64,000 nucleotides of DNA from an uncultured Nanoarchaeota archaeon (lineage in GTDB: Archaea; Nanobdellota; Nanobdellia; Pacearchaeales; GW2011-AR1). Location: assembly GCA_963743615.1 (NCBI GenBank), contig CAVUQF010000002.1:65697-129696 (forward strand), given 5' to 3'. Positions 34,048 to 47,178 of the stretch are shown one piece after another (within the stretch, counting starts at the first letter, position 1; each line of letters begins with the position of its first letter). The translations under genes and the position numbers were made by a program. The notes beneath the pieces are model-generated. The model was not told the DNA's origin. It saw nothing but the letters and a program-made list of their open reading frames with translations, and made no database searches.

Positions 34048-35343
34048 CTACTTTTCAGAAAAAGTCTTCGCTTTCAATTCAATGCAAACACCTGCAGCAA
34101 CAGTTTGTCCTGCATCTCTAACTGCAAATCTGCTCATGAATGGATTTGCTTTCTGTGTTTCCAAAGCTAGATTTCCTTGTGGTTTTATCTTAACCTTAGC
34201 AAGATCTCCATTCTTCAGAAAATCAGGATGTTCTTTTATAACCTGGCCTGTTCTTGGATCAATCTGTTCCAAAAGTTCAACAAACTGGCATGGAACCTGT
34301 GCTGTGTGAACGTGGAAGACAGGAGTATAACCCTTTGCCAAAACAGTTGGGTGATTAATTATTGTGATCATAGCAGTGAACTCTTCAACGACGGGAACGG
34401 GATTAGCTGCATCGCAGATAACATCTCCCCTTGCAATATCCTTCTTTCCAACTCCCCTTATATTTATTCCAACATTATCTCCAGCATCAGCGGTTGAAAT
34501 TGCCTCGTGGTGCATTTCAATTGTCTTAACTTCTCCTTCAATTCCTTTTCCTGTTCTTCCCGGTACAATCTTAACTTTTTGTCCAACCTTCATTATTCCT
34601 GTTTCAACCTTTCCAACAGGCACAGTACCTATTCCTGTAATTTCATAAACATCCTGAACAGGCATTCTCATTGGAAGGTTTGTTGGTGCTTCCGGCATTG
34701 GGAACAAATCAAACTGTTCTATAACAGTAGGCCCTGTGTACCAAGGCATATTTTCTGATTTCTTAACAACATTATCTCCCTTTAATCCAGCGCATGCAAG
34801 GAACTGAACCTTGTCAAGTTTATATCCAACAGCACTCAAAAGTTGGCCAACTTCTTCTTTAACCTTTTTGAATCTGTCTTCCTTGTACTGAACCATATCC
34901 ATCTTGTTTATGATAACAGCAACATTCTGAACACCCATTGTTCTCAAAAGCCATAAATGCTCTTTTGTCTGAGGTTCAACACCTGTAGGGGCAGCAACAA
35001 CAAGGAAAGCTGCATCAGCTTGTGAAGCTCCAGTGATCATATTCTTAACGAAGTCTTTGTGTCCTGGTGCATCAATAATTGTAATCTGGAATTTGTTTGT
35101 TAGAATTTTCCTGTAAGCCAAATCAATTGTAACTCCTCTTTCTCTTGATTCTCTAATTTGATCCATTACGTAAGCAAATTCAAACCCGATTTTTCCATGC
35201 TTCTCTGCTTCTTGCCTAAGCTTTGCCATTTCCTGTTCAGATACTGCGCCAGAATCGAACAAGAGTCTTCCAACTACGGTTGATTTTCCAGCATCAACAT
35301 GTCCGACGAAAACAACGTTAAAGTTTGGTTTTTCTTTTGCCAT
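34048..35343 (-). CDS. tuf: translation elongation factor 1-alpha (aEF-1alpha/EF-Tu)
   Basis: GHVDAGKST, DAPGHKDF and NKMD motifs; 431 aa. Confidence 0.95.
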   Translation of the reverse strand: MAKEKPNFNVVFVGHVDAGKSTVVGRLLFDSGAVSEQEMAKLRQEAEKHGKIGFEFAYVMDQIRESRERGVTIDLAYRKILTNKFQITIIDAPGHKDFVKNMITGASQADAAFLVVAAPTGVEPQTKEHLWLLRTMGVQNVAVIINKMDMVQYKEDRFKKVKEEVGQLLSAVGYKLDKVQFLACAGLKGDNVVKKSENMPWYTGPTVIEQFDLFPMPEAPTNLPMRMPVQDVYEITGIGTVPVGKVETGIMKVGQKVKIVPGRTGKGIEGEVKTIEMHHEAISTADAGDNVGINIRGVGKKDIARGDVICDAANPVPVVEEFTAMITIINHPTVLAKGYTPVFHVHTAQVPCQFVELLEQIDPRTGQVIKEHPDFLKNGDLAKVKIKPQGNLALETQKANPFMSRFAVRDAGQTVAAGVCIELKAKTFSEK

Positions 35344-35436
35344 TTTGGTTGATAAATTTTCATAAAGAAAATTTGATATTGTTTAATCAAAAATTACATT
35401 TATAAATTTTTTGGTCTTCTCGGCTTTGCACAATAA

Positions 35437-35649
35437 CTAGACCCCTTTTTGTGCAGGAAGATATTTTACGCAGTCTGAAAAATCAACGTCTATCTTTAGC
35501 TCAAAAATTTCATGAATTAGGCAAGTAATGTTATGAGCCAGAACCTTTGCTAATATTTCATTGTCTTGGGAAATTTCCTTCTTGCATTTCAACCTGTTGC
35601 CAAATCTTCTCTTTATTATTTCTATGGTTTGCTGGAACTCTGAAAACAA
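35437..35649 (-). CDS. hypothetical small protein
   Basis: ORF only. Confidence 0.2.
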   Translation of the reverse strand: MFSEFQQTIEIIKRRFGNRLKCKKEISQDNEILAKVLAHNITCLIHEIFELKIDVDFSDCVKYLPAQKGV

Positions 35650-35695
35650 AAGAGATCAGGTTCATAAATAGTAACCCCACAATCATTAGATAGAA

Positions 35696-35983
35696 TTAGA
35701 TTTTGCAATAGGACGCGGAACAGTAATATCCCTCATAATCTCCATAACCTTTGCTAACTTTTTCTCCAACTAACAAGGCATTTGCTTTTTCCCGAAATCC
35801 CCTTGCCTTTGTTATGTAGATCGGTAATTCAGTGCTAGAATCAAAATTCAGTATTATTGGTTGTTGCTTTGCCATTCTAATGTTTTCCACGGGGATAAAC
35901 TCCTCGGTATCTAATCTCCTGAAATTTGTTTTCCCAGAACTATCTGTCTCCTGAACAACTAAAACTAGTTTTGTTAAGCTCAT
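35696..35983 (-). CDS. hypothetical small protein between fusA and tuf
   Basis: 95-aa ORF with no recognisable motif. Confidence 0.3.
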   Translation of the reverse strand: MSLTKLVLVVQETDSSGKTNFRRLDTEEFIPVENIRMAKQQPIILNFDSSTELPIYITKARGFREKANALLVGEKVSKGYGDYEGYYCSASYCKI

Positions 35984-36027
35984 AAGTTAGGATAAGAATT
36001 TAACTTTATAAGGATTATCAAGAGAAA

Positions 36028-38220
36028 TTACTGATTTTCAGCGAGTCCCTTTCTCTCTCTAATTTTTCTGATCACTTCGGCTTGCATATTCATTGGGATC
36101 CTCTCGAAAAGCTGGTCAGCGAGAGAGGAAGTTCCTCTTCCCTCTGTTGCGCTTCTAAGATCATTGCTCCATCCTATCATTTCTGCTACAGGGATTTTTG
36201 CCCTTATTTCGACCCCATAATCTTCCTGTGAGACATTTATTAGCTGTCCTCTCTTTCCTCCAAGAAGTTTTGTCATTTCTCCGAGGAATTTGTCCGGGCA
36301 TTCTATAACATGAATTTGTAAAGGTTCTAGCAAGGATGAATCTGCCGTCTTCATAGCCTCTGTTATTGCCTCCCTGACCGCAGGATAGACCTGGGCTGGA
36401 CCACGGTGAATTGCATCTTCATGAAGTCTTATATCTGAGAGAGAAACTCTCATTTTGACACAAGGTTCCCTTGCAAGAGGCCCCTGATTCATTACCATCT
36501 CAAATGCATCTAATACCATATCTATTACTTCTCCAATGTGAACCTCCCCCTTTGTTTCATCTAAGAAAATATTTCCTTTGTAAATATCTCTTATGCACTT
36601 AACAGTATCATTATCCCATCCATCAAATCTGGAAAATTTGTTTGATAACTCCTGACTCTTTTTCTTTACTCTTCCTTCGGGAATTTCTCCACTTTTGATT
36701 GCTTCATACAGATCATCTTCGAGAGGTTCTATCTTAATGAAGAAACTATTATGTTTGTTTGGAGATCTTCCCTCAACTTCCTTTGATTCTTTGTTAACCG
36801 TCTCTCTATAAACAACAATTGGAGGGGAAGTCTTCACATCAAGTCCCTTCTCTGTTCTTATTCTGTTTTCTATAATTTCAAGATGAAGTTCTCCCATTCC
36901 AGAAATTAGGCTTTCTCCAGTTTGTTCATTTATCTCAACTTTTACAGACGGATCTTCCTTTCCTACCTGTTTTAATATTTCAATAAGCTTTGGCAGGTCC
37001 ATTAATTTCTTTACTTCAATAGATTTTGTAACAACTGGTTCGAAAATATGTTTCAATTCTTCAAAGGGCGTTTCAGGTTCTACAGTAATTGTCTCTCCAG
37101 CCTCTCCGGTGATTCCAGAAATGGCTAGAACATTTCCAGCTCCAACTTCATCAACCTGTTCAGGTTTTATTCCGTTGTAAACCAATATTTGCTGAACCTT
37201 TTGTTCTTTATTTGCAAGGTTAAGATGAACTTCCATTCCATTTTTTATTGTTCCTGAGAATAATCTTCCTGCAGATATCTCTTTTCCAGAACGTTGGTCA
37301 ATCACAATTCTGGTTATGACAAAACCAACTTTTCCCTTGGGATCACAACTCAATAAATCTTTTCCAAACTGACTGTCCAAATCGCCGTGCCAAATCTTTG
37401 GTATTCTATATTTTTGCGCTTCTAGAGGATTTGGGAGATGTTTTACGGCCATATCTAGGAGAACTTCATATAATGGCGCGTTTTTCCAAACCCAATCTTT
37501 TCTTTCAGTGTCACTCATCTGTTCAAGGTTGAAAATATCTTTGAATGTAATCCCCTTCTTTTTCATAAATGGAATGGACAGCGCCCAATTATCTTTTGCA
37601 CTTCCGAATGCAACACTTCCATCATTAATATTAACAACCCACTTGTCTTTGAATTCAGGCTCGGCTGCTTTGTATACCAAACTATTAAACTCCTCTATAA
37701 TCTTAACAAATCTCTGCTGCATTCCCTCGGGAGTAAGTTTCATTTCTTTTATCAATCTGTCAATCTTGTTTATGAACAAAACGGGTTTTACTCTTTCTCT
37801 AAGTGCTTGCTTGATCACTGTTTCAGTCTGGGGCATTATTCCCTCAACGGCACATACAAGGACGATTGTTCCGTCGATTGCTCTCATAGCTCTTGTAACA
37901 TTCCCTCCAAAATCAACGTGCCCGGGAGTATCTATGAGATTGATCAGATATTCTTCACCCTGATAATCATGAACCATAGAAACATTTGCAGCATCAACAG
38001 TCATAAGCCTCTCCTGTTCATCAGAATGCTGCCAGGTTGCCATACCTTCCTCAAGATTTCCTGCATTCTTCTCGGCCATATATCCAGATGCGGCTAAAAG
38101 ATTATCTGTCAAAGCCGTTTTTCCATGGTGAATGTGTGCACTTGTGGCTATATTTCTAATATTTTTTTGGCTTTTGCTAAGTCTTACTATTCTTCCAGAT
38201 TGTGATTCTTTTTCTGCCAT
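36028..38220 (-). CDS. fusA: translation elongation factor 2 (aEF-2)
   Basis: AHIHHGKTALTDNLL and DTPGHVDF. The diphthamide-region domain IV is present; 730 aa. Confidence 0.95.
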   Translation of the reverse strand: MAEKESQSGRIVRLSKSQKNIRNIATSAHIHHGKTALTDNLLAASGYMAEKNAGNLEEGMATWQHSDEQERLMTVDAANVSMVHDYQGEEYLINLIDTPGHVDFGGNVTRAMRAIDGTIVLVCAVEGIMPQTETVIKQALRERVKPVLFINKIDRLIKEMKLTPEGMQQRFVKIIEEFNSLVYKAAEPEFKDKWVVNINDGSVAFGSAKDNWALSIPFMKKKGITFKDIFNLEQMSDTERKDWVWKNAPLYEVLLDMAVKHLPNPLEAQKYRIPKIWHGDLDSQFGKDLLSCDPKGKVGFVITRIVIDQRSGKEISAGRLFSGTIKNGMEVHLNLANKEQKVQQILVYNGIKPEQVDEVGAGNVLAISGITGEAGETITVEPETPFEELKHIFEPVVTKSIEVKKLMDLPKLIEILKQVGKEDPSVKVEINEQTGESLISGMGELHLEIIENRIRTEKGLDVKTSPPIVVYRETVNKESKEVEGRSPNKHNSFFIKIEPLEDDLYEAIKSGEIPEGRVKKKSQELSNKFSRFDGWDNDTVKCIRDIYKGNIFLDETKGEVHIGEVIDMVLDAFEMVMNQGPLAREPCVKMRVSLSDIRLHEDAIHRGPAQVYPAVREAITEAMKTADSSLLEPLQIHVIECPDKFLGEMTKLLGGKRGQLINVSQEDYGVEIRAKIPVAEMIGWSNDLRSATEGRGTSSLADQLFERIPMNMQAEVIRKIRERKGLAENQ

Positions 38221-38903: not shown

Positions 38904-39104
38904 TTAATTCTGTACTCCTCTTTCCAATTCACTTAAAACTCTTGCATTAGCTTCAACATAATCAAGTCCTTTTCCAATATATTCAGCTCTTTTTTTTTCA
39001 TTGTATCTTGATATGTCTGCTTTTGTAACAACTGTTGCCAACCCTCCTATAAGAGCAGCACCTGTGCATAGGTAAAGAACAGCTAAAGCATTGTTACAAT
39101 CCAT
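38904..39104 (-). CDS. small hypothetical protein wedged between rps12 and rps7
   Basis: 66 aa with an N-terminal hydrophobic segment. It fills the S12-S7 spacer exactly. Confidence 0.3.
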   Translation of the reverse strand: MDCNNALAVLYLCTGAALIGGLATVVTKADISRYNEKKRAEYIGKGLDYVEANARVLSELERGVQN

Positions 39105-39529: not shown

Positions 39530-39572
39530 ATTAGTTGTTGATAAAAATAGTTTAAAAATATTGTGTTGAACG

Positions 39573-39595
39573 TACTTTGTTACCTTAAAGGTTGG
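39573..39595. repeat. left terminal inverted repeat (23 bp), preceded by an 11-bp direct repeat at 39564-39574
   Basis: TACTTTGTTACCTTAAAGGTTGG is the exact reverse complement of 43186-43208. Confidence 0.75.
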
Positions 39596-39632
39596 TGGTT
39601 AAGTTTTTAAGTTTCTGAAACATCCTCTTTTT

Positions 39633-40208
39633 ATGAATATTAAAGATGTAAAAACTGCCTTTAAAGTTGCAGATGTAATCCTTGAAAAAGAACATCCGAT
39701 AAGACGTATAAGATTTGTTTTCCTTGATGAAATCTATGATGAACATAGAAAGAGATTAAATAACGATGTTCTAAAGGATAATTCTGGTAGAATTTATCTG
39801 ATTGTTGTGAATGGTCAAATAATGAAAATTGGTGGCTCACAAAGTAAGGGAGGGATAAAAAGCACACTATCCTTTTATCAGGGAGGATTACAAGGCGGTC
39901 CAAGTATCAGGACCTATGGAATTCATATTCTATTGAGCGAAGAACTTGAAAAAGGAAAGAAAGCAGAAATTTATATGATAACTTCTCAAAGAGCAAGGAT
40001 GAAAGTAAAGGGTCTATTTAGTGAAGATGAAACGGAAGTTTCGGCATTTAAGGATATGGAAGATAAATGTAAAAAAGATTATGTTGATAAAGAAGGCACT
40101 TATCCTCCTTGGAATTTTCAGGAGAAGGGAGAACCTTGGAGAGAAGATATAACACGAGGATTAAATATACACGGTAGCAAAAGGAAAGTCTTGAATAAAA
40201 ATAACTAA
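39633..40208 (+). CDS. hypothetical protein, a candidate restriction endonuclease partner of the adjacent MTase
   Basis: 191-aa ORF convergent with the MTase, overlapping it by 4 nt. No motif is assigned, so the call rests on context only. Confidence 0.3.
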   Translation: MNIKDVKTAFKVADVILEKEHPIRRIRFVFLDEIYDEHRKRLNNDVLKDNSGRIYLIVVNGQIMKIGGSQSKGGIKSTLSFYQGGLQGGPSIRTYGIHILLSEELEKGKKAEIYMITSQRARMKVKGLFSEDETEVSAFKDMEDKCKKDYVDKEGTYPPWNFQEKGEPWREDITRGLNIHGSKRKVLNKNN

Positions 40209-41182
40209 TTTCTTGGTGGGCAATAGATTAAAATTTCGTGAGAACCTTTGATATTGCTTTCAGTTCCATTATCAATTCTATTCTTTCCTATCCTTGTTTC
40301 TCCTTGACCCATAGTATATTGCCAAATTGGAAATAATTGCTGAAATTCTTTGTAATATTCTCTTATTGTTGGACAATCATTATAAGACAAGATAAAACCA
40401 CCTTTATGCTGTTTCAATAAATCCCTTAAAACTTCGTGGGGAAATCCTTTATGATGAACAGGAATATTTCTCATAGGATAAATTCCTTTGAACATTTTAG
40501 AATCTGGTCCGATATAGTAAGGTGGGTCCAAATACATAAAATCATTTGGATATTTTTTAAGAGTATCTTGGAAATCTGCCTGTTCAACTTTCAAGTTTCC
40601 TGGTTCAAAATCTCTAATTTTTTCTATTATCTTTTTATATCTCTCTGGTTTTAGATAAATATCAGAACTCCAACCCATAAAACCAGGACCATAAGACAAA
40701 TTAAAATTATAAACATAATAAATAGCAAGGGTTAATGGGTCTAAAGTAATCTCTTTTCTCCAGACCTGATTTAATATTTTTCTTATCCTTTCAAATTCTT
40801 CTTTGGTAGGTTTTAACTCCATTAACTTTTCATAGAGAAGTTTTGGATTTTCTATTTGATATTTCCAATAATTACATAGAATATCAAAAATCTCATAACC
40901 TCGGACTTCAATATCAAGATATTTGCTCATAGCAATTTCAACAGAGCCACCACCAAAAAAAGGGGATATAACTCTTGTTACATTATCTGGCAATAGTTCA
41001 AGAATATGCCCAACAGCTAAACTCTTGCCCCCTGCATATCTTATCGGAGAAACAGGGACTCTCTTGTATTTGTTCATACTCTCTGGGTTTTTACTTCTTA
41101 TGCTTTCCAGAAAATCTCTCCTCTTTTCAGTATCCATATTTATCTCATTCTCTTTTGTCTTTTTAACTTTTCTGACTTGCAT
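40205..41182 (-). CDS. Dam-class (alpha, D12) N6-adenine DNA methyltransferase
   Basis: PIRYAGGKS; motif I ISPFFGGGSVEIAM; motif IV FMYLDPPYY. The likely true start is Met at ~41077. Its 5' end overlaps the transposase gene by 20 nt. Confidence 0.85.
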   Translation of the reverse strand: MQVRKVKKTKENEINMDTEKRRDFLESIRSKNPESMNKYKRVPVSPIRYAGGKSLAVGHILELLPDNVTRVISPFFGGGSVEIAMSKYLDIEVRGYEIFDILCNYWKYQIENPKLLYEKLMELKPTKEEFERIRKILNQVWRKEITLDPLTLAIYYVYNFNLSYGPGFMGWSSDIYLKPERYKKIIEKIRDFEPGNLKVEQADFQDTLKKYPNDFMYLDPPYYIGPDSKMFKGIYPMRNIPVHHKGFPHEVLRDLLKQHKGGFILSYNDCPTIREYYKEFQQLFPIWQYTMGQGETRIGKNRIDNGTESNIKGSHEILIYCPPRN

Positions 41183-42113
41183 TATATATTAACTCCAACC
41201 ATTTATTTTCTGAATTTAATATTAAATCAGTAGCTAATTCATAAGGACAGCAATTCAAACTTTGATGTTTGGTTATGAAATTGTAATAAACTTCCCAACC
41301 TTTCATAATCGCATTTGCAGAATTTACAGAACCGTGAAATCCTCTGAAAGTTTTAGTTCGCTGTCTAATATTATTATGCAATCTTTCAACCATAATATTG
41401 AACCCTTCGCCACGAGAAGCATTAACTTGATTATGGATTACATTTACTTGATGTGTTTTATTTGAATATCCAAAAACTTTCTTTATTGCATTAGGATAAG
41501 CCATAAGTCCATCAGTAGTTATGACTTTGATTTGTTCTCCTGTCTTGATTTTTGTTGCTTTTAGGATTTGCTTAATGTTTCTCTGTTCTCTGTGCTTTAC
41601 AAATTCAGAAGCAACCATATAACGAGTTTCAGTATCTATGGAATCAATAAACCAATTTCTATCTACTCCTCTTTTGTTGTGATATTTTCTTCTGGAATAC
41701 TCCATTTCATCAACTTGCAGTTCGCTACCGACATTCAGCTTTAAGCTGTTTGTAAATTGAGAAATCATCTTGCCATATTTCACAATCCACTTATAGATTG
41801 ACTTATGACTGGAATTATGAGGGTAGAATGCCTTAAAGTGTTCCTGAACCTTTCTGGTGCTAACTCCTCTGTAGAATAAGTCAATAGCACAAGTTATCTT
41901 TTGAGGGGCATTTCTCATTCTCTTGAAGCCATCATCAAGAACAAATGTGTTTAAGCAATCTTTACACTTATATCTTTGAATTAGACCTCTATTTTGGGTT
42001 TTTCTTCTGCACCACTTAATTGTGCTGTTGCTCTTGCATTTTGGACATATCATTTTGTTTTCCATAGTATAATTCGGTATCCGAACTATATATATCTTTC
42101 GGTATCCGAACAT
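41163..42113 (-). CDS. IS6-family-like DDE transposase with an N-terminal zinc-finger extension
   Basis: The C-terminal region (ITTDGLMAYPNAIKKVFG...HNQVNASRGEGFNIMVERLHNNIRQRTKTFRGFHGSVNSANAIMKGWEVYYNFITKH) follows the IS26/IS6 pattern. The N-terminus carries CPKCKS...CKDC. Confidence 0.7.
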   Translation of the reverse strand: MFGYRKIYIVRIPNYTMENKMICPKCKSNSTIKWCRRKTQNRGLIQRYKCKDCLNTFVLDDGFKRMRNAPQKITCAIDLFYRGVSTRKVQEHFKAFYPHNSSHKSIYKWIVKYGKMISQFTNSLKLNVGSELQVDEMEYSRRKYHNKRGVDRNWFIDSIDTETRYMVASEFVKHREQRNIKQILKATKIKTGEQIKVITTDGLMAYPNAIKKVFGYSNKTHQVNVIHNQVNASRGEGFNIMVERLHNNIRQRTKTFRGFHGSVNSANAIMKGWEVYYNFITKHQSLNCCPYELATDLILNSENKWLELIYNASQKS

Positions 42114-42187
42114 ATATTATATACCTACTTAAAGGTATAGTCTTTTAAAATAATAAAGTTTAAAAACATACCTATTTTAAGGTATAT

Positions 42188-42790
42188 ATGCCTAATAGTG
42201 AGTATATATCATTCTGCCATCGTTGTTATCACACTTGGAAGAGAAGACGAGAAGAACTTCCAAAAGTCTGCCCAAAATGTAAAAGTCCTTACTGGAATAA
42301 ACCAAAGAGAATTGCTCAAAGATTAATTCTTCCAACTTCCGAAACTATAATTAAAATCCATGATGAGATAATAAGAAAAAGTGGAGGTGAATTGGGTATA
42401 AGAGAAGATGGAGGAATACATAACTCTATTCTTAAATTACTGAATCATCAACAAAAGAACAGGAAGAATCCTGAAAGTATAGGTGCTTTTGCTTTAAACG
42501 AATTTGCTAAAAGACACTATTTTATAGATGGTAATAAAAGAATAGCTTATGCAGTAGCTAAAATATTTATGCTCATAAATAGATGTCATCTAAAAACAAA
42601 ATATGGTGAAGCTACTGAATTTATTAGAGAGGTAGCTAAATATCAAAGCAAAATAGACCTTCCAGAAATTAGGAATTGGTTTAAAGATAACAGATGTGAA
42701 ATAATTACCGAGAAAGAATTAGAAAACTATTTAAGTAGAAACTACTTTGATTTAGTATTTGAAGAGGAAGGGGGGCAAAATGGAAGATGA
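42188..42790 (+). CDS. Doc/Fic-family toxin (death-on-curing) with an N-terminal Zn ribbon
   Basis: The Doc motif HYFIDGNKRIAYAVAKIFML has the form HxFx(D/N)GNKR. The N-terminal CHRC...CPKC forms the Zn ribbon. Confidence 0.75.
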   Translation: MPNSEYISFCHRCYHTWKRRREELPKVCPKCKSPYWNKPKRIAQRLILPTSETIIKIHDEIIRKSGGELGIREDGGIHNSILKLLNHQQKNRKNPESIGAFALNEFAKRHYFIDGNKRIAYAVAKIFMLINRCHLKTKYGEATEFIREVAKYQSKIDLPEIRNWFKDNRCEIITEKELENYLSRNYFDLVFEEEGGQNGR

Positions 42791-42965
42791 AAAATCTGAA
42801 CTAAAAAATAACGAGATAAAAATAACTAAAAAAATCGTTTATGAATTCTCTAAAAAAGATGACCTTACTGATAAAGATAAGAAATTCTTGAAGTTAGTAA
42901 TGATTGCAGGAGAACTCGTTATAAAGGAAGATGAATTGCTATTCAAAGAATTAGCAAAATATTAA
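42759..42965 (+). CDS. small charged protein overlapping the doc 3' end; a possible cognate antitoxin
   Basis: 68 aa and K/E-rich. It overlaps doc by 32 nt. An alternative start is MEDEKSEL at ~42780. Confidence 0.3.
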   Translation: MKRKGGKMEDEKSELKNNEIKITKKIVYEFSKKDDLTDKDKKFLKLVMIAGELVIKEDELLFKELAKY

Positions 42966-43185
42966 TTATTATTTTTCTTTTTCAATAACTATTTTATCTT
43001 TTTCTATATTAACTTTTAACTCTTTATTTAAAAGATTTGACTCTTCAACTTTCTTTGGGAGATTTATTTTGTATTTATAGTAAGTTGTATTACCTACTTT
43101 CTTATCAACTGACTTCATTATTTTCATAAAATAATTAGGTATCCGAACCTTTTAAATAATTCGGTTTCCGAAGAAAAAGAAGCTA

Positions 43186-43208
43186 CCAACCTTTAAGGTA
43201 ACAAAGTA
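43186..43208. repeat. right terminal inverted repeat (23 bp), followed by an 11-bp direct repeat at 43209-43219
   Basis: CCAACCTTTAAGGTAACAAAGTA is the reverse complement of 39573-39595. Confidence 0.75.
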
Positions 43209-43220
43209 TGTTGAACGTAA

Positions 43221-43637
43221 TTACAAAATTCTCAGCTCTTTGCCAAAAAAGTCCTTTAATATTTTTTTCATTTCTAGGAGCCTTCTCTTCTCTCTACCTA
43301 TAAAAGCTGCTTTGTTTTTTGTTCCCGCATGAATTATTATCTCGTTGTTTCTGATTTCCAGATTCTTGAACTCAAATGGTTCTACTATCTGTTTTACAAA
43401 TCTCTCTGCATCAGCTATTCCCTCTGGAGCTATTATTATCTTGATCTTCTTTCCTATAATATTGCTTAACTGCTTTGAATTTTTTCCATCCTCTCCTATT
43501 GCCTTTGAGACTAAATTCTTTGGAACGCAAAAGAATATTGTATCATTGTATTCAAAACAGAATCTTGTGCTTATTTTGGTAATATCCCTAAAGAGATTAA
43601 GATGTCTCATATCCTGCATATTTATTGTGCTTTCCAT
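43221..43637 (-). CDS. nusA: archaeal NusA-like transcription termination factor (KH domains)
   Basis: KH motif LVSKAIGEDGKNSKQLSNIIGKKIKII. The 138 aa length fits, and the gene lies immediately downstream of rpoA. Confidence 0.8.
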   Translation of the reverse strand: MESTINMQDMRHLNLFRDITKISTRFCFEYNDTIFFCVPKNLVSKAIGEDGKNSKQLSNIIGKKIKIIIAPEGIADAERFVKQIVEPFEFKNLEIRNNEIIIHAGTKNKAAFIGREKRRLLEMKKILKDFFGKELRIL

Positions 43638-43653: not shown

Positions 43654-46600
43654 TTATTTCTTTTCCTTGGACTCTTTCGTCAAAGGTCCAGAAACTTTTA
43701 CAAATAATCCAGGAAGTCCAGTACCAACAGGGATAGGCTGATTCAGAATTATATTTTCAACAACACTTGCAAGTTTGTCTTTGCTTCCTTTTATCGTTGC
43801 ATTTACAAACTGTTTAACTGGAGTCTCAAAAGTTGCCCTTGCTAGTATTGAAGATTTCTGAGAGATAATTCCCATTCTGGTTACCCCTGACACAACTCCC
43901 GTATTTGTCATAGCATCAGCGACCAGTTTCAAATGTCTCTTGTCTATATCTAGACCCTGATTGTTCAAGACTTCGTATATTTCATTCATTATAAGTTTTC
44001 TTGCAGATTCAATTCCGAAAACATCTGCTACTTCATAAGGATCATTTGAAATTAACTTTTCGACATCCACTTCCTTCAACTTTATTATTTCCTTCAAATT
44101 TGTTCCCAGAGTGAGTATAACAAAGTCCTTATCTCTCTTTACAATCAATATCTGGCTGACATTCTTTATTCCCGAGATTATTGTTCTCTTAAGTTTTTCC
44201 TTCAACTGATAAATTTCCTTGAAATTCAATTCTGCTGCGTCTATAACAATGGAATCTTCTTTTTCTTTTATCTTGTACCCAGATTCCTTAAGTTTTTCTG
44301 TAATCTTATCTAAAGAAGTATGAACATGCTTTAATCTTTCTTTGTTAATAATAATTTCAATCTTCTTATCGCTGAAATTTAATTTGATTTCATCCGAAAC
44401 TTCTTCTATCTTTACTTCTTTTATTTTCTCAGCAATAATTCTTGCATCTTTTTCATTGTTGAAGTTCTTGTTCAAGTAAATTTCCATCTTTGGAGATGTT
44501 GGCTTCTTTCTTGCATCAAATATTTCAATTAATCTTGGAAGTCCTTGTGTAACCTGCATTTCGGATACTCCTGCGAAGTGGAATGTTCTCAAAACCATTT
44601 GCGTCGAAGGTTCTCCAAAAGATTGTGCGGTAACTATTCCTATTGCTTCTCCTGGTTCTAACTTTCCATCTTTAAGATGAAGTTTTGAAACATCCAGTCC
44701 ATCTCCACCATACTTGAACTGAATAATGCTACCATTACTGTTTCTTACCGTTCCATCATATTCTTCTCTTAAATCCTGTAGTGCGCTTGCAAGTCTTCTG
44801 TATAAATATCCGGATTTAGGAGTTCTTAATGCAGTATCCATAAGAGAGGATCTTCCAGTCATTGCCTGGAAGAAGAATTCTTCTGGCTTAAGACCATCCA
44901 TAAATGAACTGTTAATGAATCCTCTTGCCTTTGGAGATAAATCTCCCTTTTTGAAGAAAGATAATGTTCTGTCATTAAATCCTATATCAATTCTCTTTCC
45001 TTCTAAATCTTGCTGTCCTACAGAGCAAGCCATTTGGGTAATATTAAGAATATTTCCTCCGCTTCCTGACTTGATCATATATGAAACCGGGTTATCTTCA
45101 GGGAACTCTTCTTTGACTACTTCACTGATCTTTGATCTGACCTCATTTAGTATCTGCAATATCTTAAGTTCTCTTGACTCCTCTCTTGTCTTTCCAGGTA
45201 TTATCTCAAGACTTTTATTGTTGTAAGATTCAATTATTTCTTCTGTTTTCTTTTCAGCATTCTTGATTATCTTATCTTTTTCTTCAAGAACTTTCTTTGA
45301 TACATCAAGGTCTCCTACCGAAATTGTGATTCCTCTATTTGTCAAATATTTTGTTCCTAGAGCATAAGCCTTTTTTAGTGTCTCAAAGATTACATCTCTT
45401 CCAAGTTCTCTATCAATAACTTTTACCAAATCTCCTTCCTCATCGCTGAAAATTGTTTTGTTAAGTATTCCACTAACAACTTTTCCATCCTTAATTTTTA
45501 CAGAATCATTTTCAAAACTTATCTCCTTTGGAAGAACATGTGAGAATATCTCCATCCCTGAAACTTTCTTTCCTTGTGAGCCATTGAAGATTCCACACTT
45601 GTAAAGAAGATCATCCGCAAAATCCTTTGAGAACTGTCCAAGTCCGAGTAGATATCCTCCGGTTATTGCATCCCCTGTGCATCCAATTAAATTGGTATTG
45701 TTCTTTGGGGAAATCAGATTTTTCTTTATATCCAATAGAATTCTTGCTTCTGCTCTTGCCTCTTCAGTCTGAGGAGAGTGAATATTCATTTCATCCCCAT
45801 CAAAATCCGCATTATAAGGAGGTACAGCGGCAGGGTGAACTCTGAATGTTCTTCCCGGAAGAACTCTTACGAAGTGGGCCATCAGGCTTCCCTTGTGAAG
45901 GCTTGGGTGTCTGTTGAATAAAACAACATCTCCGTCCTGAAGGTGTCTTTCGACTTTATATCCTGTAATTATTTCATTTATTATTTCATCCTTTAGCTCC
46001 GGAGTAATCTTTTTTCTCTTCCCGTCTGGTCTTATAACATAATTTGCACCGGGATAATCCTCTCCTTTTAAGATAAGTTTTTTCAAATTATCTATGTTCA
46101 GATCATTAACAGTCTCGCAAACAGTTATCACCTTTGCAATTTCATAAGGAATACCTATTTCATTTATTTCAATGCAAGGATCAGGAGAGATGACGGTTCT
46201 TGCGGAATAATTAACTCTCTTTCCTGCAAGGTTCTTTCTTATTCTTCCCTCTTTTCCTTTGATTCTTTCCGTGATTGTCTTTAATGGTTGTCCGCTTCTA
46301 TGCCTTGCGGGAGGAATTCTTGAAACAGTATTATCAAAGAATGTTGTTATATGGAACTGCAATAAATCCCAAAGATCTTCTATAATAACTTCAGGAGCTC
46401 CGGCATTAAGATTCTCCCATAATCTTTGGTTTGCTCTTATTATATCTGATAGTTTGTGAGTCAAGTCATCTTCACTTCTCTCTCCACTTTCAAGAATAAT
46501 ACTTGGACGCACAGTTACAGGAGGAACAAGAAGGTATGTTAGTATTGCCCACTCAGGTCTTGAGCTTGTAGGATCAACCCCTATCTTTTTTAGCTCTTCA

Positions 46601-47178
46601 TTTGAAATATTTTCAAGAAGTTCTCTTACTTCATTTGGAAATAATCTCTTCTTGCCAATGTAGAAACTAGTTGGCTTATCAACTTTTATCTTCTCATGGT
46701 CAGCTCCGCAGTAAGGGCATTTCTTTACGTCCTTTGCTTTCTTGGCTCTTTCACTTTGAGAATATTTCTTTAGATTTTTATCATCAAGAAGCAACTTTCC
46801 GCATTTATGGCAGAAGCATCTTAGCCCCATTTCAATCAAAGGGACATACTTCAAGTGTACAACCGGTCTTGCAAGCTCAATTCTTCCAGGGTGTCCAAGG
46901 CATTCTTTTAATCTTCCCCCACATGTTCTGCATCTTACACCCGGATCAATTGCTCCAAGTCTTAAGTCCATTAATCCTCCATCAACAGGGTAACCATCGA
47001 CATCATAGAGCTCAGGTGTTACAATCTTCGCAGCCGAGATTTTTTTAATCTCTTCCGGACTAAATAAAGTGAATTTTATCTCTCCAATTTTCTTTCTTAT
47101 TATTTGTGGATACATTTTATTCGTATTTGTTCTTAAGACCAAATTTAGTATGGATATGTAATCCTTGAAGTTCTTCAA
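43654..47178 (-). CDS. rpoA: DNA-directed RNA polymerase largest subunit; the A' and A'' regions are in a single ORF
   Basis: The N-terminal clamp Zn motif RCRTCGGRLKECLGHPGRIELARPVVH and the catalytic NADFDGDEMN are A' features. The C-terminus ...ILNQPIPVGTGLPGLFV is A''-like. The ORF is continuous over 1174 aa. Confidence 0.9.
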   Translation of the reverse strand: MKNFKDYISILNLVLRTNTNKMYPQIIRKKIGEIKFTLFSPEEIKKISAAKIVTPELYDVDGYPVDGGLMDLRLGAIDPGVRCRTCGGRLKECLGHPGRIELARPVVHLKYVPLIEMGLRCFCHKCGKLLLDDKNLKKYSQSERAKKAKDVKKCPYCGADHEKIKVDKPTSFYIGKKRLFPNEVRELLENISNEELKKIGVDPTSSRPEWAILTYLLVPPVTVRPSIILESGERSEDDLTHKLSDIIRANQRLWENLNAGAPEVIIEDLWDLLQFHITTFFDNTVSRIPPARHRSGQPLKTITERIKGKEGRIRKNLAGKRVNYSARTVISPDPCIEINEIGIPYEIAKVITVCETVNDLNIDNLKKLILKGEDYPGANYVIRPDGKRKKITPELKDEIINEIITGYKVERHLQDGDVVLFNRHPSLHKGSLMAHFVRVLPGRTFRVHPAAVPPYNADFDGDEMNIHSPQTEEARAEARILLDIKKNLISPKNNTNLIGCTGDAITGGYLLGLGQFSKDFADDLLYKCGIFNGSQGKKVSGMEIFSHVLPKEISFENDSVKIKDGKVVSGILNKTIFSDEEGDLVKVIDRELGRDVIFETLKKAYALGTKYLTNRGITISVGDLDVSKKVLEEKDKIIKNAEKKTEEIIESYNNKSLEIIPGKTREESRELKILQILNEVRSKISEVVKEEFPEDNPVSYMIKSGSGGNILNITQMACSVGQQDLEGKRIDIGFNDRTLSFFKKGDLSPKARGFINSSFMDGLKPEEFFFQAMTGRSSLMDTALRTPKSGYLYRRLASALQDLREEYDGTVRNSNGSIIQFKYGGDGLDVSKLHLKDGKLEPGEAIGIVTAQSFGEPSTQMVLRTFHFAGVSEMQVTQGLPRLIEIFDARKKPTSPKMEIYLNKNFNNEKDARIIAEKIKEVKIEEVSDEIKLNFSDKKIEIIINKERLKHVHTSLDKITEKLKESGYKIKEKEDSIVIDAAELNFKEIYQLKEKLKRTIISGIKNVSQILIVKRDKDFVILTLGTNLKEIIKLKEVDVEKLISNDPYEVADVFGIESARKLIMNEIYEVLNNQGLDIDKRHLKLVADAMTNTGVVSGVTRMGIISQKSSILARATFETPVKQFVNATIKGSKDKLASVVENIILNQPIPVGTGLPGLFVKVSGPLTKESKEKK

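Follow-up and report, generated by a model that had tools for sequence, protein, structure and literature searches.

A 64-kb stretch of contig CAVUQF010000002.1, from an uncultured Nanoarchaeota archaeon and here called the window, holds an element between the genes nusA and rps12 whose nature, distribution and cargo we describe below. Positions 39573-43208 of the window are very probably a 3636-bp unit transposon, i.e., an insertion sequence (IS) with passenger genes, that belongs to a family of such transposons in DPANN archaea. This family of gene-carrying elements is widespread and apparently undescribed.

Ends and gene content of the element

The element is delimited by terminal inverted repeats (TIRs) and, just outside them, by the two copies of a target-site duplication (TSD):

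39564-39572, no strand: left copy of the TSD, 9 bp, TGTTGAACG
39573-39596, plus strand: left TIR, TACTTTGTTACCTTAAAGGTTGGT, perfect over 24 bp; the family consensus is found in 13 other elements
43185-43208, minus strand: right TIR
43209-43217, no strand: right copy of the TSD, 3 bp from the nusA stop codon (43221-43223)

Perfect 23-bp inverted repeats at 39573-39595 and 43186-43208 had been noted in a preliminary description of this DNA. They are present, and the match is in fact perfect over 24 bp (39573-39596 and 43185-43208) and holds at 27 of the 32 outermost positions. With three mismatches allowed, the 23-mer TACTTTGTTACCTTAAAGGTTGG occurs in the window only at these two places, once on the plus strand (39573-39595) and once on the minus strand (43186-43208), where 100 shuffles yield a chance expectation of 0. 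An 11-bp direct repeat, TGTTGAACGTA, had been taken for the TSD, and this 11-mer indeed occurs at exactly two sites, 39564-39574 and 43209-43219 (0 expected). However, its left copy runs two bases (TA) into the TIR, and the extra TA on the right is flanking sequence. This overlap, together with the 9-bp duplications of all relatives, shows that the TSD is 9 bp long and rules out 11 bp as its true length.

We give next to no credence to the idea that the repeats are chance matches, members of an intergenic palindrome family or the product of a chimeric assembly. Nothing but the AT-rich background speaks for it, whereas no matches are expected from shuffled sequence, an empty site exists, and the architecture is conserved across the family. 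Moreover, identical junctions were found in more than eight independent assemblies from different samples, and the structure is therefore no assembly artefact. The TIRs and TSD beyond chance, together with the empty site, bear out the earlier proposal of a transposon insertion with target-site duplication.

Between the TIRs lie one transposase gene and five passenger open reading frames (ORFs):

39633-40208, plus strand: ORF191, predicted GIY-YIG nuclease and probable type II restriction endonuclease (REase), convergent with the methyltransferase gene
40205-41182, minus strand: D12-class N6-adenine DNA methyltransferase (MTase), type II (Pfam PF02086, 3.5e-33; PADLOC MTase_II PDLC03281, 2.4e-113)
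41163-42065, minus strand: transposase with an N-terminal CxxC..CxxC zinc (Zn) ribbon, a helix-turn-helix (HTH) and a DDE domain (R at E+7); likely start at M17 of a 316-amino-acid (aa) ORF that reaches 42113
42188-42790, plus strand: Zn-ribbon-Doc fusion, 200 aa, with the Doc motif HYFIDGNKR, divergent from the transposase gene (Pfam Fic, 6.9e-9)
42780-42965, plus strand: ORF61, a conserved companion of Zn-ribbon-Doc with an 11-nt overlap at the Doc stop codon; candidate antitoxin
42969-43127, minus strand: ORF52, a small AbrB/MazE-like protein just within the right TIR; candidate repressor

The transposase, MTase, convergent ORF and Doc that had first been recognized are all there, with three corrections: the convergent ORF is the GIY-YIG nuclease, there are two small ORFs, and Doc is fused to a Zn ribbon. 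Neither a further TIR (again at up to three mismatches) nor another homolog of the transposase, Doc, the MTase or ORF191 is present in the window, and an Rfam scan of it returned tRNAs only.

What we find is one transposase gene with its passengers inside one TIR pair, a TSD, and an empty site elsewhere. The single transposase gene and the TIR/TSD architecture shared with the family therefore identify a single-transposase unit transposon that is a member of a mobile family. One might instead think of a composite or pseudo-compound transposon, in which two IS copies mobilize the DNA between them in the manner of IS6/IS26, since the transposase is IS6-like and this is the classical way in which cargo travels with IS6 members (PMC7986276). 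Such an arrangement is very improbable here: tblastn detects one transposase gene only, flanking IS copies are absent, and the end repeats are merely 24-27 bp and inverted, whereas an IS6 pseudo-compound transposon has directly repeated whole IS copies (PMC7986276). In addition, the same single-transposase TIR/TSD architecture recurs in 12 relatives. The preliminary description had left the choice between an undescribed cargo-carrying element and a composite. Its first half stands, in that the element carries cargo and we found no description of the family, and its second half falls with the single transposase and the end repeats of 24-27 bp. Its remark that the geometry is unlike that of a simple IS6 copy is upheld by the 24-bp TIR, the 9-bp TSD and the 3.6-kb length with cargo. 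A literature search for IS6-like cargo transposons of DPANN archaea or Pacearchaeota found nothing relevant; ISfinder and TnCentral lay outside that search.

A family of related elements in DPANN archaea

Scanning genomes for the transposase gave 40 loci, in records titled Pacearchaeota, Woesearchaeota, Nanoarchaeota or simply 'archaeon' (handles beginning with L denote collected loci). Element ends in the relatives were located with an inverted-repeat script followed by boundary refinement. At 12 of the 40 loci, family TIRs flank the transposase gene; these elements measure 2.4-7.7 kb, and their 9-bp direct repeats, 11 of them perfect and one matching at 8/9 positions, all differ from each other. 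The TIRs follow the consensus TAC(A/T)TTG-N5-TTAAAGGTTGGT over 21-32 bp. Apart from the window copy, 15 copies with family TIRs, 1.1-7.7 kb in size, were found at unrelated loci; their 9-bp TSDs (14 perfect, one 8/9) all differ. A search for further copies of the 23-bp TIR had been suggested at the outset. In a scan of metagenome contigs the exact 23-mer of the window matched only three short ones, in which it bounds different DNA and has a different flank each time. At nine of the 15 insertion sites no open frame of at least 70 codons spans the site, and the other sites are close to frame ends; surviving copies therefore sit between genes.

Defective members occur as well. A transposase-less derivative of 1.1 kb (L083) has a perfect 9-bp TSD, and a Nanoarchaeota contig from Hainich groundwater (L094, 4758-6024) contains a 1267-bp defective element with the perfect TSD TAGCTAAAC, in which a remnant of the transposase gene is accompanied by homologs of Zn-ribbon-Doc, ORF61 and ORF52.

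One family copy of 4.07 kb, with transposase, MTase and an REase-like ORF, lies on a viral contig (L086, 96-4160; IMGVR_UViG_3300001335_000237), where it adjoins genes for portal, head protease and major capsid proteins. This copy suggests that viruses carry transposons of the family. It has no TSD, which counts against our overall reading of the element and its family. A scan of viral contigs with the degenerate family TIR gave 21 matches, mostly single chance ones, and partner ends were seen in L083 and L086 only.

Affiliation of the transposase

The preliminary description had called the transposase IS6-like. This is borne out by a Pfam match to DDE_Tnp_IS240 (PF13610) at 35 bits, above the gathering score of 27, by the best NCBIfam match, which is IS6 (NF033587; 80.1 bits, whole profile covered, cutoff of 125 missed), and by profile alignment to IS26. 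In the last of these, hhalign aligned our family alignment with the IS26 transposase at a probability of 94.5% (E 8e-8), matching the HTH, the second D and the E..K/R motif; the IS26 sequence used here is found with 100% identity on thousands of plasmids. The NCBIfam profiles for IS256, IS1 and IS481 score lower than IS6, that for IS1 (NF033558) reaching 40 bits against a cutoff of 100, and the N-terminal Zn domain NF050000 scores 25.8 against 28. No meaningful match was found among PDB sequences. D119, D185, E227 and R234 are invariant in an alignment of 24 sequences, as are the Zn ribbon and the HTH. Homologs in the genome listing mostly align from query residue ~18-23, which speaks for the start at M17. 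The transposase is intact and, on this sequence evidence, homologous to yet distant from the transposases of the IS6 family.

Homologs form more than 1250 clusters at 90%, and every organism name given by a source is from DPANN (Pacearchaeota, Nanoarchaeia). NCBI labels them 'IS1/IS6 family' or 'DDE-type integrase/transposase'. An exhaustive HMMER scan reduces them to ~3 full-length representatives of 50% clusters, followed by a gap to relatives of 34-38% identity.

In the mechanism that we propose, the transposase would bind the 24-30 bp TIRs and then make staggered target cuts 9 bp apart. The reaction may be replicative, with cointegrates as in IS6, or cut-and-paste. The IS6 assignment, and a cointegrate mechanism with it, is an inference that faces opposing points: the score of 80 against 125 bits, and TSD length, TIR length and TIR tips that differ from those of IS6.

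Empty, occupied and rearranged nusA-rps12 spacers

Exact matches to the S12, NusA, transposase and Doc proteins led to many independent assemblies, from the same organism or close relatives. An empty site was found in a sister lineage (L002, L005, L010) that is ~87% identical to the window lineage in neighbouring genes. There the nusA-rps12 spacer is 46 bp long, close to the ~45 bp that had been predicted for an uninterrupted spacer, and the window spacer minus the 3645 bp between the direct repeats likewise gives 46 bp. The target of the empty lineage reads TGTTGAGCATT and differs from the window target at 3 of 11 positions.

All contigs with the window's own flanks, which we term lineage A, are occupied and have an identical junction, and yet the occupant exists in several states. 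Full-length copies in L004 and L011 are 100% identical. In L058 the transposase gene is split into three small ORFs. A mini form of 468 bp is present in L001 (7490-7957) and L060, and probably, from the ORF pattern, in L068. It retains both TIRs and ORF52 but has lost window positions ~39673-42840 in a 3.17-kb deletion, the junction of which shows a 3-bp CAT microhomology within a 14/19 imperfect repeat. Flank identity is 100% toward nusA and 99.9% toward rps12. The mini form is a non-autonomous derivative, like a miniature inverted-repeat transposable element (MITE), in the same strain background.

The fourth state is a hybrid, L003 (1-3200; ERZ25039466 contig_64922). A tract of 100% identity to the window begins in nusA, spans the right TIR, ORF52, ORF61 and Doc, and ends ~340 bp into the transposase gene, at window position ~41781. 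The transposase is frameshifted at the joint, beyond which follow a C-terminal half of 50-80% identity, an N6_N4 MTase and the left TIR TACTTTGGTGAATTAGAGGGAC; outward of the tip of this TIR, 100% identity to the window resumes. A donor of this arm is absent among the collected loci, the best match being 77% at the protein level, and a scan of viral contigs for the variant left TIR gave no matches.

These full, degraded, mini and hybrid states fit one old insertion that has diversified in place. Most probably the element would have inserted once, when an ancestor of the strain lineage took it up in the few base pairs that permit an insertion after the nusA stop codon and ahead of the rps12 promoter, and the resident copy would now be diversifying and decaying in situ. 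Several observations weigh against this history or limit it. No empty site of lineage A was seen among the contigs from the exact-protein look-ups, and the known empty sites come solely from the sister lineage with its 3 of 11 different target positions. No other insertion site of the exact element was found in the population, where all occupied contigs share one site; current activity is therefore unproven. Finally, L003 combines a different left TIR with an identical junction, so that a single insertion needs an extra, unproven recombination step.

The same hybrid is an argument for site-specific integration into the nusA-rps12 spacer, with TGTTGAACG(TA) as an attachment core at which relatives entered independently: left TIR, transposase C-terminal half and MTase all differ at one and the same junction between flanks that are 100% identical. 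One may add that L053, an unrelated copy, has a flank (GCGTTGAAC) similar to the window target, and that L007 has another gene in the same spacer. We nevertheless regard site-specific entry as highly unlikely. The element has no integrase or recombinase, the loci of the 15 other copies with family TIRs are unrelated and their 9-bp TSDs all differ, and the L007 ORF is unrelated and has no TIRs. As for L003 itself, its right two thirds are 100% identical to the window, and it is therefore a recombinant of the resident copy rather than an independent insertion.

The swap of the left arm in L003 could be explained by an IS26-like, transposase-mediated and end-targeted exchange with subsequent homologous recombination, or else by an independent insertion at the same site. 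An end-targeted arm exchange of the IS26 kind would explain why the replacement extends from a conserved stretch of the transposase gene exactly to the left TIR tip, with flanks 100% identical. This leads to a broader picture that we put forward as a speculation with the odds against it: the window element would be one copy of an undescribed, DPANN-wide, IS6-related family that shuttles restriction-modification, toxin and housekeeping-type genes between ultra-small archaea and their viruses, and whose members also swap arms by a transposase-mediated reaction targeted to their ends ('targeted conservative', IS26-like).

Insertion point and the rps12 promoter

The insertion follows the nusA stop codon by 3 bp and is at -44 from the rps12 ATG; 43 bp remain next to rps12, of which the TSD takes up -43 to -35. 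Just beyond it, on the rps12 side, the following feature is found:

39551-39558, minus strand: TATA-like box TTTTTAAA, at -29 to -22 from the rps12 ATG, outside the element and retained; putative leaderless rps12 promoter

The same box is present in the empty spacers of L002 and L010 and in the more distant L007. Among 47 host genes of the window, TATA-like hexamers begin 25 times in the bin at -30 to -26 relative to the ATG, compared with 1-6 times in any other 5-nt bin. Shine-Dalgarno-like spacing is not visible across these genes. The four genes of the element follow the host's TATA-to-ATG spacing. From the sharp peak at -30 to -26 it follows that leaderless promoters at that distance are the norm in this genome, and the sequence pattern indicates that the organism's transcripts are predominantly leaderless. 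The genes rps12, rps7 and fusA would thus keep their own leaderless promoter, with the TATA-like box beyond the insertion. Because the element inserted just upstream of this apparent promoter, the operon is probably not crippled. A caveat on the other side is that the rps12 promoter is proposed from sequence geometry and conservation, not from transcripts, and a literature search on archaeal nusA-rps12 promoters found nothing relevant.

The preliminary description had asserted that transcription of rps12-rps7-fusA-tuf has to come from inside the element or from beyond it, a claim that finds no support with the TATA-like box kept at -29 to -22. The element might still supply the promoter, either by read-out from the transposase and MTase genes, which share the strand of rps12, or through a hybrid promoter at its left end. 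We consider this unlikely, since the gene nearest to rps12, ORF191, points away from it, and the retained spacer has a TATA-like box at the distance typical of the genome, one that is also present in the empty site. Furthermore, the 468-bp mini form, which lacks the transposase and MTase genes and all but ~40 bp of ORF191, persists with the same sequence upstream of rps12.

Interruptions are not confined to this insertion. L007 (624-971) has an unrelated 115-aa lipoprotein-like ORF between nusA and rps12, L002 (11344-13358) has three extra genes, two of them on the opposite strand, between fusA and tuf, and in the window a 66-aa hydrophobic ORF (38904-39104, minus strand) separates rps12 from rps7. 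These interruptions, and the conservation of the box in the empty lineage and L007, lead us to regard the rpo/nusA, rps12-rps7-fusA-tuf cluster of these genomes as probably a string of separately promoted units that tolerates insertions.

In the same cluster, RNA polymerase subunit A is encoded by a single ORF (43654-47178, minus strand; 1153-1174 aa, Rpb1 domains 1-5), and rpoB is also unsplit (1084 aa). Split A'/A'' genes are usual in archaea.

Restriction-modification cargo

The D12 MTase adjoins a protein of nuclease fold, ORF191, to which Pfam, NCBIfam and PADLOC assigned nothing; a single-sequence search of PDB gave no GIY-YIG match and one unrelated weak one. A profile built from 35 homologs matches R.Hpy188I (3oqg, E 0.0017) and T4 EndoII (2wsh). 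The AF2 model of ORF191 has a pLDDT of 92.8, and its only significant Foldseek matches are again Hpy188I and EndoII, with a probability of 1.00. The identification of ORF191 thus derives from the profile and the predicted fold. The D12 MTase and the Hpy188I-like GIY-YIG nuclease are predicted to form a type II restriction-modification (R-M) pair. Their convergent layout recurs in L030, with a His-Me finger REase, and in L031, with an MjaI REase.

R-M systems make up most of the cargo of the family. A DNA MTase is present in 8 of 14 inventoried elements, and the viral copy L086 is a ninth, judged from ORFs alone, with an unannotated ORF beside the MTase. The REase is recognizable by Pfam beside the MTase in L030 and L031; most others have an unannotated ORF in that place. 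The remaining cargo comprises Laminin_G surface proteins, a PMT-type glycosyltransferase, a class I tRNA synthetase of the Trp/Tyr type with a chorismate-mutase domain protein, an Exo_endo_phos nuclease with a CYTH protein, and a complete Liv-type ABC transporter with a TrmB regulator.

The window element is nearly free of six palindromic sites, with observed/expected counts of 0/10.8 for GATC, 0/5.7 for CTAG, 0/3.9 for GTAC, 0/6.9 for TCGA, 1/7.9 for CATG and 0/2.4 for CCGG. Together this amounts to one site against 37.6 expected, whereas the rest of the window is near expectation. The comparison extended to L016, L023, L028-L031, L050 and L086: other R-M-carrying members have the same depletion, and it is weaker in those with housekeeping-type cargo. 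It is the classical restriction-avoidance pattern of promiscuous mobile DNA. The site counts do not single out TCNGA or GATC as the target of the R-M pair: TCNGA is not depleted in the element (17 observed, 10 expected), and GATC is missing from the element but present in the host.

The Zn-ribbon-Doc module and its regulation

The Doc protein scores 47.5 bits against TIGR01550 (DOC_P1), above the cutoff of 38.65, and contains a Doc-type Fic motif. Its N-terminal 45 aa are homologous to a Zn-ribbon ORF of 46-60 aa that is divergent from the transposase gene in eight relatives. The transposase and the divergent Zn ribbon form the conserved core of the family. The ribbon is standalone in these eight, whereas the window and L003 have it as a Doc fusion, which makes 10 of 14 in all. 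Zn-ribbon-Doc fusions are common in DPANN archaea, with an overlapping downstream ORF of 46-71 aa and sometimes a convergent ORF of 52 aa. ORF61 corresponds to the former, and its homologs (46-71 aa) overlap the 3' end of the Doc homologs in L090, L092 and L094. ORF52 has a homolog of 63% identity at the same position in L094, and ORFs related to it in L016 and L053 show weak MazE_antitoxin matches below the cutoff. Neither small ORF has a significant Pfam match, even at E <= 10. There is no gene for a Phd-type antitoxin upstream of Doc, where the neighbour is the divergent transposase gene.

Because L094 retains a transposase remnant together with homologs of Doc, ORF61 and ORF52, the Doc module of Zn-ribbon-Doc, ORF61 and ORF52 travels with a sub-lineage of the transposase as its long-term companion. 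The cargo of the window element is predicted to be two addiction or defence modules, the type II R-M pair and Zn-ribbon-Doc/ORF61/ORF52.

The genes divergent from each other, and ORF52, are preceded by palindromes:

42073-42085 and 42098-42110, no strand: two putative operators, TTCGGTATCCGAA palindromes on either side of the TATA-like box in the transposase promoter
42121-42139 and 42168-42186, no strand: two ATACCTAnTTnAAGGTATA palindromes in the Zn-ribbon-Doc promoter region
43135-43147 (TTAGGTATCCGAA) and 43160-43172 (TTCGGTTTCCGAA), no strand: operator-like palindromes that bracket the TATA-like box of ORF52, as at the transposase promoter

The transposase and ORF52 promoters are contained in a 70-nt repeat (42059-42128 and 43121-43190, 73%) and share one order: a palindrome of the TTCGGATACCGAA type, the TATA-like box, a second palindrome, 7 nt, and ATG. 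In relatives, TACCT..AGGTA repeats akin to the ATACCTAnTTnAAGGTATA palindromes of the Zn-ribbon-Doc promoter region are found in the matching intergenic region. ORF52 would repress its own promoter and that of the transposase through the shared TTCGGATACCGAA operators that bracket the TATA boxes, and it is probably, as a putative regulator, the repressor of both genes. Weighing on the other side, ORF52 has no significant domain match, and its proposed role therefore depends on position, operator repeats and the weak matches of its relatives.

In seven relatives (L017, L021, L025, L035, L038, L028 and L029) the 5' leader of the transposase gene contains a hairpin, ~20-40 nt upstream of the ATG in the first five. 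Its stem differs on both sides between sub-groups, GGGCTC-CGAA-GAGCCC in one and GTGGTG-CGTGAA-CACCAC in the other. The window copy has the TTCGGATACCGAA palindromes in its place.

The Doc-type gene (42188-42790) lies within the cluster that encodes aEF-2 and aEF-1alpha (34048-38220). The target of bacterial Doc is EF-Tu, the homolog of aEF-1alpha. The position of the gene amid this cluster is probably a coincidence.

Significance

DPANN archaea have tiny genomes and a poorly charted mobilome, and to our knowledge they are not yet genetically manipulable. The family described here amounts to a defined transposon chassis with known ends, a 9-bp TSD, one transposase of ~300 aa and 1-6 kb of arbitrary cargo. 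It offers a concrete vehicle of horizontal gene transfer in DPANN, chiefly for defence and addiction modules but also for metabolic and translation genes, and it is a candidate genetic tool for these organisms. It would also extend the IS6 superfamily to elements with cargo inside one TIR pair, of which curated IS6 has a single member. The insertion itself matters less than had been thought at first, as no disrupted essential operon is shown.

Comparison with known systems

Phage P1 Phd/Doc is the reference for the toxin. The window motif HYFIDGNKR fits HxFx(D/N)(A/G)NKR, and the TIGR01550 score is above cutoff. Unlike the phage system, the window lacks Phd upstream of Doc, the toxin has a Zn ribbon fused to its N-terminus, and the conserved partners of this type are a downstream overlapping ORF of 46-71 aa and, in some copies, a convergent AbrB-like ORF of 52 aa. 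For the nuclease, the closest solved structures are R.Hpy188I and T4 EndoII. ORF191 shares with the Hpy188I R-M system (GIY-YIG REase, PDB 3oqg/3or3) the GIY-YIG fold and motifs (..VYlivv..KIGgS.., R93, E112/E143) and the pairing with an adenine MTase; it differs in its identity of 17-18% and in that TCNGA is not depleted in the element.

Mobile R-M units, reportedly described by Kobayashi and colleagues as R-M genes bounded by inverted repeats and TSDs, resemble the window element in that an R-M pair is selfish cargo inside a TIR/TSD-bounded unit. Here, in contrast, the transposase is identified and common to the family, and the same chassis carries a Liv-type ABC transporter, a class I tRNA synthetase, surface proteins and a glycosyltransferase.

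IS1 typically makes TSDs of 8-9 bp and has GGnnnTG ends, and its ISMhu11 subgroup is said, according to ISfinder/TnPedia, to reach 4.6 kb; a literature search on ISMhu11 found nothing relevant. An N-terminal Zn finger in the transposase and a TSD of 9 bp recall IS1. The profile score of 40 bits (cutoff 100) is nevertheless weaker than that for IS6, and the TAC(A/T)TTG ends do not match GGnnnTG.

With IS6 (IS26, IS257, IS6100 and archaeal clades), which of the known families is closest to it, the element shares a homologous transposase with HTH, DDE and a basic residue at E+7, TIRs as boundaries and the making of a TSD; an N-terminal zinc finger is also found in IS6 clade (h). The differences are considerable. 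TIR tips of IS26 start with GG. Family TIRs are 24-30 bp and start with TAC(A/T)TTG, against inverted repeats of ~14 bp in IS6, and the window copy and 15 others with family TIRs have TSDs of 9 bp against 8. The cargo of the family lies within one TIR pair rather than between two directly repeated IS copies, and the transposase scores below the NCBIfam IS6 equivalog cutoff (80.1 against 125). At 3.6 kb with five passenger ORFs, and 2.4-7.7 kb with two to seven passenger genes in relatives, the elements also contrast with the IS6 family as surveyed by Varani et al. (2021, PMC7986276), where members have an 8-bp TSD and ~14-bp inverted repeats, measure 0.7-0.9 kb with a maximum of ~1.76 kb, and include, among ~160, a single one with passengers, ISDsp3.

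In plan the element resembles transporter IS (tIS) and unit transposons, which likewise combine a single DDE transposase and passengers within one TIR pair with a TSD. Its way of working is that of a DDE unit transposon or 'transporter IS', an already known kind.

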